This document shows, piece after piece, positions 3,371 through 56,322 of a DNA stretch of 64,000 nucleotides (position 1 is its first letter; every line of letters starts with the position of its first letter). Position numbers and translations under genes: made by a program. The DNA is taken from IMG/VR virus record IMGVR_UViG_3300011865_000035; one strand, given 5' to 3'. The stretch is from a virus. Taxonomy: Duplodnaviria; Heunggongvirae; Uroviricota; Caudoviricetes. The notes beneath the pieces are model-generated. The model did not search any database. It had not been told where the DNA came from and saw only the letters and a list, made by a program, of their open reading frames with translations.

Positions 3371-4531
3371 ATGGAAATAAAAATGATAAATTTTGATTTA
3401 ATCAAAAAAATCCCCAAAATATTATCAGAAATTGAAGTTAAAGATAATGAAAAATCTATAGAAATGATAGAAGCATTAGATAACGAGGATTTTTATAAAG
3501 CAATAGAATTACTAAAATGTAATGCTGAACCGAATATTGCCGTGTATGATGGAAGCAGAGAAGAATTTATTACAGTAATACAGGTGTTATTTGATAAGTT
3601 ATATGAATCTGAATCAAAAGTATCATTTTTTAAAGATTATATAGATTTAAATCCTGATGAAGAAGAATTATCTCTCGCGGAAAATAAGCATTTGAAAGCA
3701 CCTTATGAAGAAATTAGTTTATTTATAAAAGAATGGAAAAAATACGGTGGTTCTCTAAATGCTAATCTTATAAAAATTAAAAAACATGAATATAATGAAA
3801 TAAAAGATAACGAAATTAGAACAATGAGTGATTCCATTTTTAATTCATTATTTATTTGTACTGAAAAACAAAACTGGAATAATTATTATAGTTCTGCTTA
3901 TCTTGATGATCTTACCCGAATATTACTTTCATTGTCAGAAATAATGAATGAAAAATTAAAACCAGTGTTTTTGGAGAAACCAGTATTAAGTCTTGTATTA
4001 AAAGAATGTTGGCCGTTTTACACTACATTAGATTTTTTAGAAATTTTAAATCAAGAACATGATGAGTTTTTAATAAATAAAAGAAAAGGTGAAACAGTGT
4101 TACACACTTTAGTTGATTTAAGGAAGGAAAATAATTATTGTTTAGTTAAATATAGTAATCCAGATTATTTTAAATTTATAAATGAAACTATAGAAAATAT
4201 TAATAAAATATATCCTCCTGAATTATTATTAATTAAAAATAAAGAAGGTCTTTTACCTGTAGAATATTTTGCTAAAAAAGAGTCATGGAGCCAATTTATA
4301 ATTATGGATTCTTTAATGAAAAAAAATAATTATAAATATGAATTAACACAAGAAATAATAGATTCATTCCCAGAAGATTTAACCAAATTAGGAATGATTA
4401 GAGAAAATTTAACTGAAGAAAAATTAAAAGAAATGTTTGCTGAAATTTATACGCTCAAAGAGAAATCAGTATTAAATAAAGAAATTAGCGAAGATAAAGA
4501 AGTTAAAATTCAAAAAAACAATAGATTATAA
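3371..4531 (+). CDS. hypothetical protein with C-terminal KNNRL tail
   Basis: A 386-aa ORF with no recognisable domain. It ends ...QKNNRL. Confidence 0.5.
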   Translation: MEIKMINFDLIKKIPKILSEIEVKDNEKSIEMIEALDNEDFYKAIELLKCNAEPNIAVYDGSREEFITVIQVLFDKLYESESKVSFFKDYIDLNPDEEELSLAENKHLKAPYEEISLFIKEWKKYGGSLNANLIKIKKHEYNEIKDNEIRTMSDSIFNSLFICTEKQNWNNYYSSAYLDDLTRILLSLSEIMNEKLKPVFLEKPVLSLVLKECWPFYTTLDFLEILNQEHDEFLINKRKGETVLHTLVDLRKENNYCLVKYSNPDYFKFINETIENINKIYPPELLLIKNKEGLLPVEYFAKKESWSQFIIMDSLMKKNNYKYELTQEIIDSFPEDLTKLGMIRENLTEEKLKEMFAEIYTLKEKSVLNKEISEDKEVKIQKNNRL

Positions 4532-4790: not shown

Positions 4791-4829
4791 AAAGCTTTAT
4801 ATCTTGGAAATATAAAGCTTTAATTTTTT
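4791..4829. terminator. bidirectional rho-independent terminator
   Basis: aaagctttatat-cttggaa-atataaagcttt hairpin flanked by A-run and T-run, between convergent genes. Confidence 0.7.
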
Positions 4830-5658: not shown

Positions 5659-5862
5659 ATTATCAATCCATATTTGTTTGTATTGAGTTATTATATAATA
5701 AGAAGGAGAATTAATCTAATTTTAATAATAACTATAGATATATTTATGTATATGTTTGTTTTTTTTAAAGATAAATTAACAATAAATCCTTGATAGATGA
5801 TGATTTATGGTGTATATACTATTTAAGCTCATTTAATACCACTTGATGTTTTTGGAGGATCT

Positions 5863-6069
5863 ATGACAAGTATTTTACGTTTTTTAGGGCTTGCTCCTGG
5901 TAAAGATGAAGAAGAAATGGTTAGGAAATTAAAGAATACCTATTCATCGTTAAAAGTGGTCGGTCGCGGGACTATAACAGTTTCTGCTGATGAAGTTATT
6001 AATAATCCTGAGTTTAAAGAGTTGTACATACGAGCTAGTAAAATTGTAGAACGCAGTAAAAATCAATAA
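5863..6069 (+). CDS. small hypothetical protein (68 aa)
   Basis: SD GGAGG 6 nt upstream. No recognisable domain. Confidence 0.35.
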   Translation: MTSILRFLGLAPGKDEEEMVRKLKNTYSSLKVVGRGTITVSADEVINNPEFKELYIRASKIVERSKNQ

Positions 6070-6309
6070 TTGTACATGTTTGTTTTTTCTTATACCTGAA
6101 AAATGCCTAATATGGTCTTTATTCAATGATCCTTGTAGTGTTTTTTATTTATGCCTCTGGCTCTCTGAGCATACCATATGGAACTTAAAAGTTTGATAAA
6201 TATTTACTAAATCTCCCCATAAAGTCTCGTGATTTAATGCTGGGAGTATAACAATACCTTCGAAAATAGATTTAACTCTTATAAACGAAGGTATTATAAA
6301 AAACAATAA

Positions 6310-7434
6310 TTAAATTAAATCAGAAATACTAATATTAACAACTTCATTAGTTTCCCTATTTAACAATTCAACAATTTTAGTTTCTCTTGTCGTTTTGTTA
6401 ATAATAATCCTTTTATGTATACAAATTAACTCACTGTCATAGAATTTTTTACCAGCTTTGATTTTACGATCATCTAATAAAACTTTTTTACCAGCTTGTT
6501 TTAATTGTTGATATAAACTATCTGCAATATCTTTATCTGTTGCATAATCGATAACAGAGATAATGTAATCAAAAGTGTTGAATTTTGCAGTTCCTTTAAA
6601 TCCTTTTTCATCTCTGTTTTGCTCTAATAATGCCATAATAAGACGAGAAACACCTATGCCAAAACAACCCATTAAAACATGATTCTTTTGATTATCTTTT
6701 AAATCAAAGTTTCTGCTGTAACGATCTCCCAAATTAAAGATATGCCCAATTTCAAGATAATTATCGCCATCTGAACCTTTGTCTTCTCCAAAAGAGCTTT
6801 TACAACGAAATTCTTCTGAAAAGTTTCCACCCATTTCACCCACATCAGACGATACTATTTCAAATTGAATACCTAAACGTGTGAAAATTTTAATATAGGC
6901 AGACCTTACTTCATTATAAGTATTAATTAATTCTTCATCACTATGAGAAAAGCAATAAGCATCAGACATTAAAAATTCTTTTCCTCTGATTAAACCGCCT
7001 TTAGCTCTCATTTCATCACGATATTTATTACCAATTTGATATACTTTTATATCCATGCGAGAATTATTATAGTATTTTTTCATAATTGAAGTGATTGCTT
7101 CTTCACATGTCGCTCCTAAAACAAACTCTCTGTTTTTTCTGTTTTTAAGTTTGAATAATTCTGCTCCATATGAGTCATATCTGTCAGAAGTTTTCCATAA
7201 ATCTGCATCCTGAATTAAACTTAATCTCATTTGAGAAAAACCAATATTATCCAATTCTTCCTGGATAACTTGTTCTACTCTTTTTTCAAGTAAATAGCCT
7301 AATGATAAAGTTGAAAACACACCAGCACTGTCCTGAGTATAGAATCCAGCTTTTTGAACTAAATCAACAAGATCTAATTGAGAGTTTTCTTTTACGAAAG
7401 AATTGCTATTAAAAAACATATTTGAAAATTTCAT
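6310..7434 (-). CDS. proS: prolyl-tRNA synthetase, minimal form lacking INS editing domain
   Basis: Class II motif 2 'YQIGNKYRDEMRAKGGLIRGKEFLMSDAYCF' matches E. coli '[25 protein letters not shown]'. Motif 3 is 'GCFGIGVSRLIMALLEQ'. The anticodon-binding domain is present. At 374 aa the ~180-aa INS insertion is absent. Confidence 0.85.
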   Translation of the reverse strand: MKFSNMFFNSNSFVKENSQLDLVDLVQKAGFYTQDSAGVFSTLSLGYLLEKRVEQVIQEELDNIGFSQMRLSLIQDADLWKTSDRYDSYGAELFKLKNRKNREFVLGATCEEAITSIMKKYYNNSRMDIKVYQIGNKYRDEMRAKGGLIRGKEFLMSDAYCFSHSDEELINTYNEVRSAYIKIFTRLGIQFEIVSSDVGEMGGNFSEEFRCKSSFGEDKGSDGDNYLEIGHIFNLGDRYSRNFDLKDNQKNHVLMGCFGIGVSRLIMALLEQNRDEKGFKGTAKFNTFDYIISVIDYATDKDIADSLYQQLKQAGKKVLLDDRKIKAGKKFYDSELICIHKRIIINKTTRETKIVELLNRETNEVVNISISDLI

Positions 7435-7473
7435 ATTGTATTCCTTATTAAGTTTCTGTTTATTAAATTTTAG

Positions 7474-7616
7474 ATAATAAAAAAACGCCTACATGAGGCG
7501 TTTAAAAGAGAAACTCAATAATATCTGAGCAATAGTCTTCTGACGCCTTATGTAGGCGTTTGTGGTCGTATACCTTTTAAGAAAACTTGATTATTGCACA
7601 TGATATTTTCCTTCAT
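7474..7616 (-). promoter_or_regulatory. candidate transcription attenuator of proS: leader peptide, hairpin and terminator
   Basis: Minus-strand leader ORF 7601..7548 (MCNNQVFLKGIRPQTPT, SD AAGGA, alternative start 7616). Its two Pro codons and stop lie inside hairpin 7542-7560. Then a 40-nt spacer and terminator hairpin 7484-7502 plus U7, 40 nt before the proS ATG. Confidence 0.3.
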
Positions 7617-7737
7617 TATTTTTCGTTGTTATTCCATATTAATTATCAAAGTAAAAGAAGTCAAGTTTTATTTTATGAATTGCTGAAATCTTATTATTTT
7701 ATTATAATAAAACATATACATTAAGTGAGAGCAAAGA

Positions 7738-8796
7738 ATGGATAGTAAATATAGTTTTGAGAATAAAAGGATTTATGCTGAAAGAGAAGCATTATTGCCA
7801 GAAACAGATGTTAATTATGCTATAAGAAAAATATTGTTGATTGAAAAAATTTTTCAAAATGAAGAAGTTTCTTCAATAAGACCTACTTTTTCTTTATTTT
7901 TTGATGCATCAAATAATATCTTTTTTGAGCAAGATTTTTTAATATCCTGGAAATATAATTCTAAAATATCAAATAGTTTGCACCATGATATAAATAATAT
8001 ATTAGAGGAAATTAAAATATTAGATGAAGCTTTTGCTAATTTTTATATATTAAACAACTATTACAATTATGAAAATGATGCTTATATTAAAGAAAAAATA
8101 GAAAGAGAAATGATTGAAAAAATGAATAATTTGTTGGTTAATTCCACAATTCATCGATATAACAGGTTCGATTTATATACAAAAGATGAATCCTTTATAG
8201 ATTTATTTAATGAGAATAACCGAAAATATTTTAAAGAATATATAGAGACATTAAGAGAAAATAAAAATTATATATCACCCAAAATAGAAATTTATGGAGA
8301 AGAATTTGCATTAATTCCTGTTGATTTTAATGATTTTCAGGTCACAGATATCGGGAGAATGAAATATTATAAAAAACAATTTTATTTTGAAGAAATAAAA
8401 GAATTTATTATTGAATCATTTGATAATCTATATAACAATGCTGTTCAAAATTCTAGTTCTGTAGAGAAAATAAATATGACTATTGATAGTAAAAACCAGA
8501 ATATATCCTCGGTGTATATTGATAATGAAAATCATTTTTCTTTATTAAATTACAGGACAAAAATATTACCCTGTCTTTCTGATACTAAAGAATTCTCAAT
8601 AGAGTTAGAAAATTTAAAAGAATCATTGGAAAAAAACCTTACTGATATTTTTGAATTTACTAAAATAAAAAATCATGACACAAATATATCTCAAATAGCT
8701 AATGAAATAGAAATATTAATAAATAAAAAGGTATTAAATAATTTATTGTCAGGAAATAGTGAAATTAATAATAAAATTCATAAAAATAGATTTTAA
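7738..8796 (+). CDS. hypothetical protein (ends HKNRF)
   Basis: A 352-aa ORF with no recognisable domain. Confidence 0.5.
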   Translation: MDSKYSFENKRIYAEREALLPETDVNYAIRKILLIEKIFQNEEVSSIRPTFSLFFDASNNIFFEQDFLISWKYNSKISNSLHHDINNILEEIKILDEAFANFYILNNYYNYENDAYIKEKIEREMIEKMNNLLVNSTIHRYNRFDLYTKDESFIDLFNENNRKYFKEYIETLRENKNYISPKIEIYGEEFALIPVDFNDFQVTDIGRMKYYKKQFYFEEIKEFIIESFDNLYNNAVQNSSSVEKINMTIDSKNQNISSVYIDNENHFSLLNYRTKILPCLSDTKEFSIELENLKESLEKNLTDIFEFTKIKNHDTNISQIANEIEILINKKVLNNLLSGNSEINNKIHKNRF

Positions 8797-8852
8797 TGTT
8801 CAACTCTTATTTAAAATAGAATATAATATATAAATACAATTAGGAGAAAACT

Positions 8853-52812: not shown

Positions 52813-53001
52813 AATATATTCCCGTTTGTTAAATGTAATTGCTTATATTACCATTTGAAAAAACGGAATTCAATCTATTTTTATTAATTAAACAATACTT
52901 TTATATTATTGTTGAAAAAATTTTGTTCAAATTCAAAGCTAAAATTTGAAATAATAAAATTAATACAGTATGTTTTTATAAAATAAAATCAGGAGAAAAT
53001 C

Positions 53002-53571
53002 ATGAAATTATTTAAAATAAGATCTAATACAAAAGACTATGCAAGTTTTTTACAAAAAAATTATACAACTTACTACGAAAGCATAAAATACAAAGCATTA
53101 CATGAACAAAAATGGCAACCATTTGATATTGAAAAATATATAATTCCAGAGTTCGAAATATTGACAAGTGATACAGGGAAAAGAAATTTCCAATTTGATT
53201 TTTCTTCTCACCCTTCACCATTTTATATTTTTAGTGAAAATGCAGTTGAAGCTTTAAAAGACATACTTGAACCAAGGGGGAAATTTCTACCTATAAAGAC
53301 TCCAAGTAAAAGAAAAAAATTTATTGGTTATTATCCCACTAATGCAATTAAGGGATTGGTTGATTTGGAAAAATCAGGTATTTATGATTTAAGTTTAAAT
53401 TTTGAGACTGATAATTTAAAATTTAGAGAAAACATTGCAATTGATGAATATATGTTTTGTATTTCAGAAAGTAGAAATTGTATTCTTTTTACTGAAAAAT
53501 TCAAAGAAAGAGTTGAAGAAACAAAACTAAACAGTTTTTCTTTTTTATCTGTAGATGTGGATTTTGTTTAA
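53002..53571 (+). CDS. paralog A of tandem 190-aa family (immunity-protein-like)
   Basis: The shared core is 'KA(L/M)HEQKW(Q/K)PF...PEFE...SDTGK(R/K)NFQ(F/H)D...SPF(Y/F)(I/V)FSENA(V/I)EALKDILEPRG(K/Q)FLPI(K/I)TPSKRKKFIGYYPTN'. There is no signal peptide. Confidence 0.55.
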   Translation: MKLFKIRSNTKDYASFLQKNYTTYYESIKYKALHEQKWQPFDIEKYIIPEFEILTSDTGKRNFQFDFSSHPSPFYIFSENAVEALKDILEPRGKFLPIKTPSKRKKFIGYYPTNAIKGLVDLEKSGIYDLSLNFETDNLKFRENIAIDEYMFCISESRNCILFTEKFKERVEETKLNSFSFLSVDVDFV

Positions 53572-53584
53572 AGAGAAATAAACA

Positions 53585-54178
53585 ATGAGAAAAGTAATGC
53601 TATATACAATACAAGGAAATACAAAAGATTATTCGGATTTTTTGGAAATAAATTATTGTAATGTGGAAAAGTGCATTCAAGTAAAAGCAATGCACGAACA
53701 AAATTGGAAACCTTTTGATATGGAAAAGTTTGTAATTCCAGAATTCGAATTGGCTAGGAGTGATACAGGTAAAAAAAATTTCCAGCATGATATTTCTACT
53801 CATGAAAGTCCATTTTATATCTTTAGCAAAAATGCAGTTGAAGCTTTAAAAGATATACTCGAACCACGAGGACAATTCTTACCTATAAAAACTCCAAGTA
53901 AAAGAAAAAAATTTATAGGTTATTATCCAACAAATCCATTAATTAATGCAATAGATATAGAAAAATCTGGAATGAAAGATTATAACTACAAAGTATTAGG
54001 TATAAAAAAAGAGAGTCTTCATTTTAAGAAAGGGATAGTATTAGATGAATATCTTTTCAGTTTATCAGAAGACAGGCGTTATGTTTTTGTTACTGAAAAA
54101 TTCAGACAACGTGTGGAAGAAGCTGAATTAAAAGGATTTGATTTTGAAGGTAGAGACTTTATAGTTACGGTGGATTAA
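53585..54178 (+). CDS. paralog B of tandem family
   Basis: About 85% identical to 54769..55362. Confidence 0.55.
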   Translation: MRKVMLYTIQGNTKDYSDFLEINYCNVEKCIQVKAMHEQNWKPFDMEKFVIPEFELARSDTGKKNFQHDISTHESPFYIFSKNAVEALKDILEPRGQFLPIKTPSKRKKFIGYYPTNPLINAIDIEKSGMKDYNYKVLGIKKESLHFKKGIVLDEYLFSLSEDRRYVFVTEKFRQRVEEAELKGFDFEGRDFIVTVD

Positions 54179-54760
54179 ATGAAAATAAAATTATTCGAAT
54201 TAGAAAGTAATAGTGGGAATTATTCTAGTTTTTTGCAAACCAACTGGAATAAATATTATGAAACCATACAATATAAAGCCATGCATGAACAAAAATGGAA
54301 ACCCTTTAATTTAGATACTTATATTACTCCAGAGTTTGAAGTAGAAAGTAGTGATACAGGAAAAAAAAACTTTCAACATGATATATCTTCAAATGCTAGT
54401 CCTTTTTTTGTTTTCAGTGAAAATGCAATTGAAGCTTTAAAAGATATACTTGAACCTAGAGGACAATTTTTACCAATAATAACTCCAAGTAAAAGAAAAA
54501 AATTTATTGGTTATTATCCAACTAATGTTATTAATGGATTAGTTGATTTACAAAAATCAGGTAATGATGATTTAGATAGACCATTTACAACAAAAAATTT
54601 ATTCTTTAAAAAAGAAGTTGTATTTGATGATTATCTTTTTTGTATTGGCGAAAGTAGAGGTTGTGTATTAATTACTGAAAAATTTAAAAAGAGAGTTGAA
54701 GATGCTGGTTTAAAAGGTTTTGATTTTGTTTATTCTAAAATTACTGCAAAAATAGAATGA
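54179..54760 (+). CDS. paralog A' of tandem family
   Basis: Closest to 53002..53571. Its start abuts the upstream stop. Confidence 0.55.
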   Translation: MKIKLFELESNSGNYSSFLQTNWNKYYETIQYKAMHEQKWKPFNLDTYITPEFEVESSDTGKKNFQHDISSNASPFFVFSENAIEALKDILEPRGQFLPIITPSKRKKFIGYYPTNVINGLVDLQKSGNDDLDRPFTTKNLFFKKEVVFDDYLFCIGESRGCVLITEKFKKRVEDAGLKGFDFVYSKITAKIE

Positions 54761-54768
54761 AATAAATA

Positions 54769-55362
54769 ATGAAAAAAGTAAAACTATATAGAATAGAAGC
54801 AAATACAAAAGATTATTCTGGTTTTCTGGAAATTAATTATGGTAACGTAAAAAAAAGTATACAAGTAAAAGCTATGCATGAACAAAATTGGAAGCCTTTT
54901 AATTTTAATAGATATGTTGTACCTGAATTTGAACTTATAAGTAGCGATACAGGAAAAAAGAACTTTCAGCATGATATTTCTACTGATGTAAGCCCATTTT
55001 ATATATTTAGTGAATATGCAGTTGAAGCTTTACAAGATATTCTTGAACCAAGAGGACAATTTTTACTGATAAAGACTCCGAGCAAAAGAAAAAAATTCAT
55101 AGGTTATTATCCAACAAACCCATTAATTAATGCAGTTGATATAGAAAAATCAGGTATGAAAAATTATGACTATAAGACTATGGGCATAAAAAGGGATGAT
55201 ATTCACTTTAAAAAAGGAACAATTTTAGATGACTATCTTTTTAGTTTATCAGAAGACAGGCGTTATGTTTTTATTACTGAAAAATTCAGGCAACGTGTAG
55301 AAGAAGCTGGATTAAAAGGGTTTGATTTTGAAGGTAGAGACTTTATAGTTACGGTGGATTAG
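54769..55362 (+). CDS. paralog B' of tandem family
   Basis: About 85% identical to 53585..54178, including the identical C-terminus 'GFDFEGRDFIVTVD'. Confidence 0.55.
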   Translation: MKKVKLYRIEANTKDYSGFLEINYGNVKKSIQVKAMHEQNWKPFNFNRYVVPEFELISSDTGKKNFQHDISTDVSPFYIFSEYAVEALQDILEPRGQFLLIKTPSKRKKFIGYYPTNPLINAVDIEKSGMKNYDYKTMGIKRDDIHFKKGTILDDYLFSLSEDRRYVFITEKFRQRVEEAGLKGFDFEGRDFIVTVD

Positions 55363-55482: not shown

Positions 55483-56274
55483 ATGTCGAGGAATAAAATG
55501 AATGCTATCGTAGATTACCAAACATACACTAATGAAATGCTGAAAGGCATTGAAGATAAGCTCTTTTTTATGGATAAAATTAAGTTTTCGACCTTATTAG
55601 ATTATGGTTGTGCCGATGGCGCTTTAATTGAAATAATGAAAGATTTTTATCCTCATAAAAAATATGTAGGTTATGATTTTAACCCAAATATGATTCGCAG
55701 AGCGAATGCAAAAAAAATCGATAATGCTCATTTCTTTGATAAAATTGAAGAAGCAAATATTGAAATGGAAAAAGAACATGGAAAAAAAGCAGTATTATCC
55801 AGTTCTCTTATTCATGAAGTATATTCATATTGTACAGAAGAACAAATCAATATTTTTTGGCAAAACATTTTCTCTGGTAATTATGATTATGTGATTATTC
55901 GAGATATGGCATTATCTAAAAGTAATGTGAATAAATATAAATTTGCTAAAAAAGAAGATATTTATTTAGTTAAAAAATATGCGAATCATCAACAGTTAGA
56001 ACAATTTGAAAAAATTTGGGGAAGTATTACATATCAATGCAATCTTGTCCATTTCTTAATGAAATATCGATATATCAATAACTGGAGCCGAGAAGTAGAG
56101 GAAAACTATTTTCCTATTTATTTTGAAGATTATCTGGATAAGATTCCTGATAATTATGAAATTGAATTGCTGGAACATTACACTCTACCATTCCATAAAG
56201 ATATTATTTATAAAGATTTTGGCATTAATTTTGAAGAAAAAACTCATTTGAAATTAATTTTGAAAAAAGTTTAA
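55483..56274 (+). CDS. class I SAM-dependent methyltransferase
   Basis: Motif I is 'LLDYGCADGALIE'. Motif II acidic residue is in 'YVGYDFNP'. 263 aa. Confidence 0.6.
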   Translation: MSRNKMNAIVDYQTYTNEMLKGIEDKLFFMDKIKFSTLLDYGCADGALIEIMKDFYPHKKYVGYDFNPNMIRRANAKKIDNAHFFDKIEEANIEMEKEHGKKAVLSSSLIHEVYSYCTEEQINIFWQNIFSGNYDYVIIRDMALSKSNVNKYKFAKKEDIYLVKKYANHQQLEQFEKIWGSITYQCNLVHFLMKYRYINNWSREVEENYFPIYFEDYLDKIPDNYEIELLEHYTLPFHKDIIYKDFGINFEEKTHLKLILKKV

Positions 56275-56297
56275 ACAATAAAATAGAATAAAATAAA

Positions 56298-56322
56298 GAA
56301 GAGAGCTATTAGCTCTCTTTTT
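56298..56322. terminator. bidirectional rho-independent terminator
   Basis: aagagagct-att-agctctctttttg. Confidence 0.7.

Follow-up and report, generated by a model that had tools for sequence, protein, structure and literature searches.

A putative orphan array of Imm11 immunity genes, probably derived from an AHH toxin-immunity locus by toxin-operon deletion and array contraction

In Myxococcus xanthus, MXAN_0049 was shown to confer immunity to the AHH nuclease MXAN_0050, some toxin genes are followed by additional imm11 copies, and diverged Imm11 paralogs cross-protect at 46% identity (PMC12077181, PMC12077131). Binding and neutralisation of the cognate nuclease were demonstrated for the Myxococcus homologs (PMC12077131). 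Homogeneous polyimmunity loci can be built from Imm11 genes, among other families, and the listed partners of Imm11 are Tox-AHH, Tox-HNH and Tox-SHH (Zhang et al. 2012, PMC3482391). Here, a tandem array of four Imm11 genes was analysed, which occupies positions 53002–55362 of a 64,000-nucleotide stretch of DNA (IMG/VR record IMGVR_UViG_3300011865_000035). This stretch, referred to as the window, is a 64-kb part of a 393,835-bp Joint Genome Institute (JGI) contig.

Orphan immunity arrays are known from type VI secretion system (T6SS) orphan immunity genes of Vibrio cholerae, the acquired interbacterial defence clusters of Bacteroidales, and the orphan modules of contact-dependent inhibition (CDI) and Rhs systems. 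In these arrays, immunity is kept without the toxin, presumably against the toxins of neighbours; the arrays are reshaped by recombination, and horizontal exchange occurs. The array in the window differed from them in its immunity and toxin families, and its putative orphaning step (a 3,605-bp deletion with capture of a ribosome-binding site and start codon) was readable from population variants. Compared with MXAN_0050/MXAN_0049 and other AHH–Imm11 pairs, the immunity family (PF07791), the fold and the toxin family (PF14412) were the same, and the immunity gene was located directly 3' of the toxin gene in relatives of the window, whereas the toxin was absent from the window itself. The locus resembled homogeneous polyimmunity loci in its tandem single-family paralogs, its strain variability and its link to Tox-AHH (PMC3482391), and no essential difference was seen; it adds a new case, from an AT-rich lineage that is uncultured, in which the two-gene units regularly pair an A-type with a B-type gene. 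The array very likely consists of orphan Imm11 immunity genes against AHH nucleases, which would have originated from the deletion of a toxin operon and the contraction of a longer array.

The four genes were all located on the plus strand, namely, gene A (53002–53571, 189 aa), gene B (53585–54178, 197 aa), gene A' (54179–54760, 193 aa) and gene B' (54769–55362, 197 aa). A and A' were A-type and B and B' were B-type Imm11 genes, and gene B was chimeric. An initial annotation, made from the sequence alone, had described four open reading frames (ORFs) that encode paralogs with a conserved core. Their coordinates were confirmed, and the proteins aligned over the full length with 83 invariant columns and the core ...SPF(Y/F)(I/V)FS..A.EAL.DILEPRG.FL.I.TPSKRKKFIGYYPTN... 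in common. Comparison of the array DNA with itself gave four direct copies with a period of approximately 590 bp and a two-gene unit of 1,177–1,184 bp, in line with that annotation. The protein identities were 59.9% (A/B), 62.4% (A/A'), 57.2% (A/B'), 55.4% (B/A'), 81.2% (B/B') and 59.2% (A'/B'). The DNA identity was 83.5% between B and B' and 78% between the two 1.18-kb units. Therefore, the four paralogs were real, the pairing of B with B' was clear, and the pairing of A with A' was marginal inside the window, its value being barely above those of A/B and A'/B'. The proposed A-B-A'-B' pattern thus held directly for the B pair, and the A-type and B-type clades separated clearly only in a tree that included relatives; the approximately 85% identity assigned to B and B' was slightly too high for both protein and DNA. 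The C-terminus ...GFDFEGRDFIVTVD was identical in B and B', and neither a hydrophobic N-terminal signal nor an -RL tail was read from the four sequences, both as previously described. The GC content of the array was 27%, compared with 24% for the window overall.

A, B, A' and B' belong to the Imm11 immunity family. This assignment was made because of the Pfam matches, the intermediate relatives, a profile match to the Protein Data Bank (PDB) entry 6a4c and the predicted fold. The gene B protein matched Pfam Imm11 (PF07791/DUF1629) with 27.2 bits, above the gathering score of 22.1, and the assignment of gene A ran via its paralogs and the A2 sequence profile. A database search with a profile of the four sequences yielded 163 relatives, some of which were annotated as imm11 or DUF1629; their sources were Salmonella, E. 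coli, Shigella, Proteus, Providencia, Vibrio, Gilliamella, Snodgrassella and many metagenomes. Imm11 was matched by 20 of 34 aligned family members, whereas the CXXCG family of the same clan and Imm43 were matched by one member each. An exhaustive profile search gave 1,435 cluster representatives at E ≤ 1e-3, and all ten sampled intermediate relatives were above the Imm11 threshold (24.6–52.4 bits). This A2 profile matched 6a4c (MXAN_0049) with an E value of 0.0048. The AlphaFold2 model of the gene B protein had a predicted local distance difference test score of 94.0 and a predicted template modelling (TM) score of 0.89. When this model was compared with the PDB by Foldseek, 6a4c was the sole match at E ≤ 0.001 (E 1.4e-4, probability 1.00), with TM scores of 0.54/0.50 over 207 aligned columns and a sequence identity to MXAN_0049 of approximately 14%. 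Imm43 was also considered, one Proteus relative being so named in UniRef. The sole Imm43 match among the 34 relatives had an E value of 0.0013, the four window proteins did not match Imm43 (PF15570) at E ≤ 1, and Imm11 was the better assignment. No match was found when the genome contigs and viral contigs were searched with the family alignment profile. The suggestion in the initial annotation that these were immunity genes of a polymorphic-toxin system was thus borne out, with Imm11 as the family and an AHH nuclease as the partner, and the profile searches placed the proteins in no NCBIfam enzyme family.

Exact or near-exact copies of the window proteins were found only in metagenomic contigs, and the contigs of relatives were up to 619 kb in length. 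The loci of the metagenomic relatives (L numbers) shared with the window a left flank, composed of a Metallophos gene and two small minus-strand genes, and a right flank, composed of an S-adenosylmethionine (SAM)-dependent methyltransferase gene. Three haplotypes were distinguished between these flanks. Type I (L004–L009) carried a 395-aa gene, a 477-aa gene, a 312-aa AHH toxin gene and three to six or more immunity genes with a B-type gene first. Type II (L096–L100) carried the 395-aa gene, the 477-aa gene, a 309-aa AHH toxin gene and an array with an A-type gene first. Type III (the window and L091–L095) had no toxin operon and two, four, five or more, or six immunity genes. The array in L097–L099 was A-B-A'-B' with the same spacing as in the window. 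This array was 96.7% identical to that of the window over 3.3 kb of DNA, and its proteins were 94–96% identical to the window counterparts. Gene A was 94.7% identical at the protein level to gene 1 of L098 and 98% to gene 2 of L004–L009, and it was the ortholog of the gene directly downstream of AHH309. Gene A' was 94.3% identical at the protein level to gene 3 of L098 and 91% to gene 5 of L008.

A PF14412 AHH gene was located directly upstream of the array in L004–L009, L096–L100, L001, L102 and L103. The toxin domain of AHH312 matched PF14412 with an E value of 1.5e-18, and the AHH matches of the orthologs were about 1e-18. AHH309 and AHH312 were 98–100% identical in the approximately 175 N-terminal residues, which contained an unannotated domain in addition to a signal peptide and a hydrophobic segment, and were 31–64% identical in the nuclease domain. 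The immunity genes were paired accordingly: A-type genes followed AHH309, and B-type genes followed AHH312 and the toxins of Salmonella and E. coli HVH 39. The locus of the relatives is a polymorphic toxin system, in which each variant has its own immunity type. The nuclease domain of AHH312 was 62–85% identical to that of the 315-aa Salmonella toxin. The N-terminal domain of the toxin formed 13 clusters among 5.8 billion proteins, all of which were AHH fusions. For trafficking domains (PAAR/Rhs/VgrG, TPS/FHA, LXG/WXG and MafB-N), Pfam found only AHH in the toxin.

In Neisseria MafB/MafI, a signal peptide and a conserved N-terminal domain are combined with variable C-terminal toxin domains; an accessory envelope gene lies upstream, and immunity genes and orphan modules lie downstream. 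No sequence relation to Neisseria Maf was found, in that the locus proteins of the relatives had no Pfam match to DUF1020 or MafA, and unlike in MafB, the N-terminal domain occurred only with AHH domains. The toxins of M. xanthus are delivered by the T6SS or as SitA lipoproteins via outer-membrane exchange, whereas the toxin of the relatives had a Sec-type signal peptide, a hydrophobic segment, the unannotated domain of approximately 175 aa and two upstream envelope genes. Its signal-peptide-only N-terminus matched the type II secretion system ('T2SS') class, which is defined by a signal peptide only and is listed for Tox-AHH (PMC3482391). The 395-aa protein, which has a signal peptide and whose C-terminal part carries weak ankyrin-like repeats, and the 477-aa multi-pass membrane protein had only sub-threshold Pfam matches. 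Their genes (5813–8437 in L004 and 4414–7038 in L098) were always present or deleted together with the toxin and were absent from the Salmonella and E. coli islands. Both proteins may be export or delivery accessories. The distant relative L103 (a 1.3-Mb metagenomic contig with 25.6% GC) carried the AHH toxin type together with three 198-aa Imm11 paralogs at another locus. In this region (5856–16016), a run of seven opposite-strand genes for proteins of 156–173 aa and a Colicin-DNase toxin with a 146-aa neighbour were observed next to the AHH toxin and its immunity genes, and the L103 lineage appears rich in toxin/immunity clusters.

In the window, tblastn detected neither an AHH toxin nor homologs or remnants of the 395-aa and 477-aa proteins across all 64 kb. 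The slot that holds the toxin in the relatives was toxin-free, and an Imm11 gene directly 3' of a Tox-AHH/HNH/SHH gene was present in the orthologs and not in the window. The array within the window is therefore an orphan and toxin-less, which agrees with the orphan island of the initial annotation. It was considered fairly improbable that one or more cognate AHH toxins are encoded elsewhere in the genome, with the array being a displaced polyimmunity locus. Such a toxin could lie outside the window in the rest of the contig, and distant L103 had the same toxin family at another locus with further toxin/immunity clusters nearby. These points were set against the lack of an AHH homolog in the window, the position of the array at the orthologous slot that is the place of the toxin in relatives, and the tiny size of the toxin N-terminal family.

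The boundary of the missing operon was defined by the DNA upstream of gene A. The upstream intergenic region (52813–53001, plus strand), which has a Shine-Dalgarno sequence AGGAG at 52991–52995, shared approximately 93–97.5% identity with the DNA that precedes the 395-aa gene in L004, L005, L009 and L098. This left-flank homology ended at position 53010, which corresponds to the start codon and two codons of the 395-aa gene of the relatives. The putative deletion junction was the 9-bp sequence ATGAAATTA at the start of gene A (53002–53010, plus strand). In L098, ATGAAATTA was found at 4414, the start of the 395-aa gene, and at 8019, an internal Met-Lys-Leu of gene A (annotated there as MKREYD-MKLFK...). 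Removal of the 3,605 bp between these two copies gave exactly the AGGAGAAAATCATGAAATTATTTAAAATAAGA of the window, and the junction was identical in five of the five other toxin-less loci, L091–L095. The missing 3,605-bp block corresponded to the 395-aa, 477-aa and AHH toxin genes, and no immunity gene was lost. An alternative reading against L004, as a 4.19-kb deletion with AAATTA microhomology in which an immunity gene would also have been lost, was overturned by the type II haplotype. Recombination between two copies of ATGAAATTA would remove the three operon genes and convert type II into the window state. Gene A would thereby be placed behind the ribosome-binding site of the lost 395-aa gene and use its Shine-Dalgarno sequence and start codon. 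The region 52813–53001 may also contain a promoter; a promoter scan of this AT-rich DNA was no better than for shuffled controls.

The toxin-less state is best read as a deletion because the cassette had no mobility gene (neither a transposase nor an integrase) and the two toxin haplotypes, I and II, shared the left boundary and the 395-aa and 477-aa genes. The opposite direction, in which the toxin-less state was ancestral and the 395-477-AHH cassette was inserted in the relatives at the start codon of gene A, was judged improbable. The junction has the 9-bp repeat on each side and is symmetrical, sequence by itself gives no direction, and the Salmonella and E. coli islands indicate that a toxin-immunity cassette is mobile in principle. 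Nevertheless, besides the shared boundary and the lack of mobility genes, an immunity array with no history of a toxin is harder to explain than the loss of a toxin, and short direct repeats commonly give rise to deletions in a single step.

The size of the array varied among the relatives, which carried two, three, four, five or more, or six copies; an invariant copy number, which together with distinct conserved orthologs of each copy would have spoken against an immunity array according to the initial annotation, was thus not found. The arrays of metagenomic relatives were mostly composed of one to three A-B units. When 46 array genes of 11 loci were placed in a tree, the A-type and B-type genes formed separate clades in which individual alleles were recognisable, and gene 3 of the Salmonella locus L001 was a deep outlier. 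The allele order was A2-B1-A3-B4 in the window and L098, A2-B1-A5-B1-A3-B4 in L092 and L096, A2-B1 in L091 and L093, B1-A2-B1 in L004, and B4-A6-A7-A8 in L001. Gene B of the window was composed of approximately 225 nt at the 5' end from array gene 2 and approximately 370 nt at the 3' end from array gene 4, the latter type being that adjoining AHH312. Informative-site and register analyses were used for this gene, and BLAST segmentation against L092/L096 was blurred by paralogy. At the informative sites, where genes 2 and 4 of six-gene arrays differ, the pattern was 2222...4444 with a single switch, and the crossover was located at approximately 53800–53860. Moreover, the window was approximately 100% identical to L092 in one register up to approximately 53800, and from approximately 53860 it was 97–100% identical with a shift of exactly 1,180 bp. 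The four-gene array of the window is best explained as a six-gene array minus one 1,180-bp unit, with the crossover in gene B. A contraction by one unit was favoured because the parental gene types are intact elsewhere and the extra A5 cannot arise from a four-gene array.

These data also bear on the recent tandem duplication of approximately 1.18 kb that the initial annotation had proposed, in which A'-B' would have been formed in situ from A-B. The unit period, the alternating order of A-type and B-type genes, and the fact that B and B' were the closest paralogs of each other inside the window are consistent with such an event. It was nevertheless regarded as highly improbable. The units shared only 78% of their DNA and A/A' only 62% of their protein sequence, each copy had a 91–98% identical counterpart in other genomes, and each gene was closer to the L098 gene at the same position (94–96%) than to any gene of its own array. 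In addition, the same four-gene order was already present in toxin-bearing relatives, the gene-2/gene-4 chimera with the exact 1,180-bp register shift was the signature of unit loss, and A5 of the six-gene arrays was not derivable from a four-gene array. As a building block of such arrays, the two-gene A-B unit is old.

Further mosaics were found in the array genes. A short patch of A' (approximately 54280–54399) resembled allele A5 more closely than A3, the allele to which A' itself belongs, and gene 3 of L005 (7457–8026) was chimeric, its 5' part being B-type and its 3' part A-type. Both suggest that the conserved core often undergoes gene conversion or crossover. L098 contained a chimera resembling gene B with a slightly different switch point; its 5' part was identical to toxin-bearing L096, whereas the left part of gene B in the window matched toxin-less L092.

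Another role, such as an intracellular toxin-antitoxin (TA) antitoxin, anti-phage defence or an unrelated DUF function with an incidental AHH link, would fit the weak Pfam scores and is extremely improbable, because the genes directly followed an AHH toxin gene in five independent genomic contexts, A, B, A' and B' gave no match with PADLOC (anti-phage defence) or NCBIfam models, their sequence and fold matched those of MXAN_0049, a validated immunity protein, and the signal peptide indicates an exported toxin and not an intracellular TA toxin.

Several observations weigh against the reading of the array as orphan Imm11 genes left by toxin loss and contraction. The Imm11 scores of A' (19.8 bits, E 5.4e-4) and B' (21.0 bits) were just under 22.1, and the gene A protein had no direct Pfam match. 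The fold match of B was moderate (TM approximately 0.5, root-mean-square deviation 5.9) and was to a nuclear magnetic resonance structure. The loss-not-gain direction was assigned by parsimony, and as noted, a cognate toxin could lie beyond the window. Furthermore, the differing crossover points in the window and L098 mean that contraction or toxin deletion occurred twice or that strains recombined.

According to the proposed mechanism, the genes would be expressed as cytoplasmic proteins, and A, B, A' and B' would bind and block the C-terminal AHH nuclease domain (HNH/EndoVII fold) of a secreted toxin. The A-type genes would cover AHH309-like domains, and the B-type genes would cover AHH312-like and Salmonella-like domains. 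Unequal crossover within the conserved core would lengthen or shorten the array by one A-B unit (1.18 kb) at a time, and the array of the window would be a three-unit array contracted to two units, the loss of the toxin being followed or accompanied by this contraction. The retained array may protect against toxin-bearing relatives while the cost of toxin production is avoided.

The toxin-immunity cassette was the sole part common to enterobacterial islands and the AT-rich organism. B' was 92% identical in protein and 93.8% identical in DNA to the toxin-adjacent immunity gene (10001–10594) of L001 from Salmonella enterica (GCA_040167025.1, 1–20594), and it shared a 90% cluster with WP_021519286.1 of E. 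coli HVH 39. L001 contained the AHH toxin and four immunity genes (197, 193, 197 and 193 aa), and this cassette was embedded in DNA of 30% GC that also carried integrase-like, YafO, NikA-like and relaxase genes. A similar element with the AHH toxin and one immunity gene was found in E. coli HVH 39 (L102). None of 5,426 complete E. coli genomes contained similar DNA, indicating that the element is rare; phage records likewise gave no DNA match, and the sole match in PLSDB was weak and to Proteus. B' may possibly protect against an enterobacterial toxin variant.

The remaining contents of the window were also inspected. A class I SAM-dependent methyltransferase gene (55483–56274, plus strand; Pfam Methyltransf_23/31/12) was the right neighbour of the array in every haplotype, with a terminator-like hairpin 3' of it at 56296–56322; it is a flank marker, and a functional link to the array is not implied. 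The window also encoded a prolyl-tRNA synthetase (ProRS), the catalytic domain of a glutamyl-tRNA synthetase (GluRS), DUF58, transglutaminase, SGNH hydrolase, flotillin, a DUF3686 ATPase and ankyrin proteins, and most of the remaining genes had no family match. Prokaryotic features, namely, stop-overlapping Shine-Dalgarno sites (TAGGAG...ATG) and terminators composed of a hairpin and a T-run, were present, and a giant-virus origin was ruled out by these translation signals and terminators. A phage origin of the window was likewise considered and set aside: ten large window proteins had no PHROG match, a 1,624-aa protein had no match in phage records, and ProRS was only 34–39% identical to proteins in phage records. 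In our view, the source population is an uncultured 24%-GC prokaryote known from metagenomes only.

The ProRS (6310–7434, minus strand, 374 aa) had no editing insertion, and the GluRS catalytic domain (22566–23459, plus strand, 297 aa) had no anticodon-binding part. The short ProRS family occurred almost only in metagenomes, on contigs up to 1.36 Mb; its best match among 185,579 GTDB species genomes was 48% (Burkholderia/Paraburkholderia paralogs), and one IMG/VR contig reached 64%. The segment 31020–37992, which had the highest GC content in the window (32–34%), contained a gene for a 655-aa protein (flotillin according to JGI, with no Pfam or NCBIfam match) followed by a gene for the 1,624-aa DUF3686/DUF7902/AAA ATPase. 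An -RL terminus was found in 24 of the 65 ORFs of at least 100 aa, and -R[LIMF] was found in 29. Examples of such -RL ORFs ended at 4531, 10448, 11386, 14980, 17998, 19923, 24643–28037, 39175, 42913, 45283, 47288 and 49040 on the plus strand and at 4828, 40196, 45278, 56325 and 58091 on the minus strand. The last approximately 25 residues of these proteins followed the loose pattern (E/K)(K/R)xxLxxx(L/I/F)xxN, 6–9 residues and K-x-R-L-stop. The proteins had no N-terminal signal peptides, and at least one had ankyrin repeats. The K-x-R-L tail looks like a C-terminal export or targeting signal, and a literature search gave no description of a K-R-L C-terminal signal. A second tandem array (24206–28037) contained nine same-strand genes for proteins of 140–165 aa with central hydrophobic segments; most had the K-x-R-L tail, and several genes were joined by stop-overlapping TAGGAG Shine-Dalgarno sites.

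A wider scenario may be formulated, which was regarded as speculative and rather unlikely as a whole. The AHH toxins of approximately 310 aa with their Sec signal, hydrophobic segment and private N-terminal domain of approximately 175 aa would represent a new delivery route for interbacterial nucleases that includes the 395-aa and 477-aa proteins and is native to an uncultured 24%-GC lineage absent from GTDB and characterised by K-x-R-L tails. The cassette would have been recently passed to Salmonella and E. coli on mobilisable 30%-GC islands, and the strain of the window would be an unarmed immune 'cheater' with B' as its protection against the enterobacterial variant.

The current understanding of polymorphic toxin systems is unchanged by this locus, which represents an ordinary though unusually well documented orphan array. 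The near-identical immunity alleles in the AT-rich organism and in Salmonella and E. coli islands provide a small clue to the source of the cargo of these islands. The locus illustrates the stepwise origin and size change of an orphan immunity array, in which the loss of the toxin at a 9-bp repeat would have left the array on a working translation start, and unit-wise crossover in the conserved core would also yield chimeric immunity genes, possibly with new specificities.

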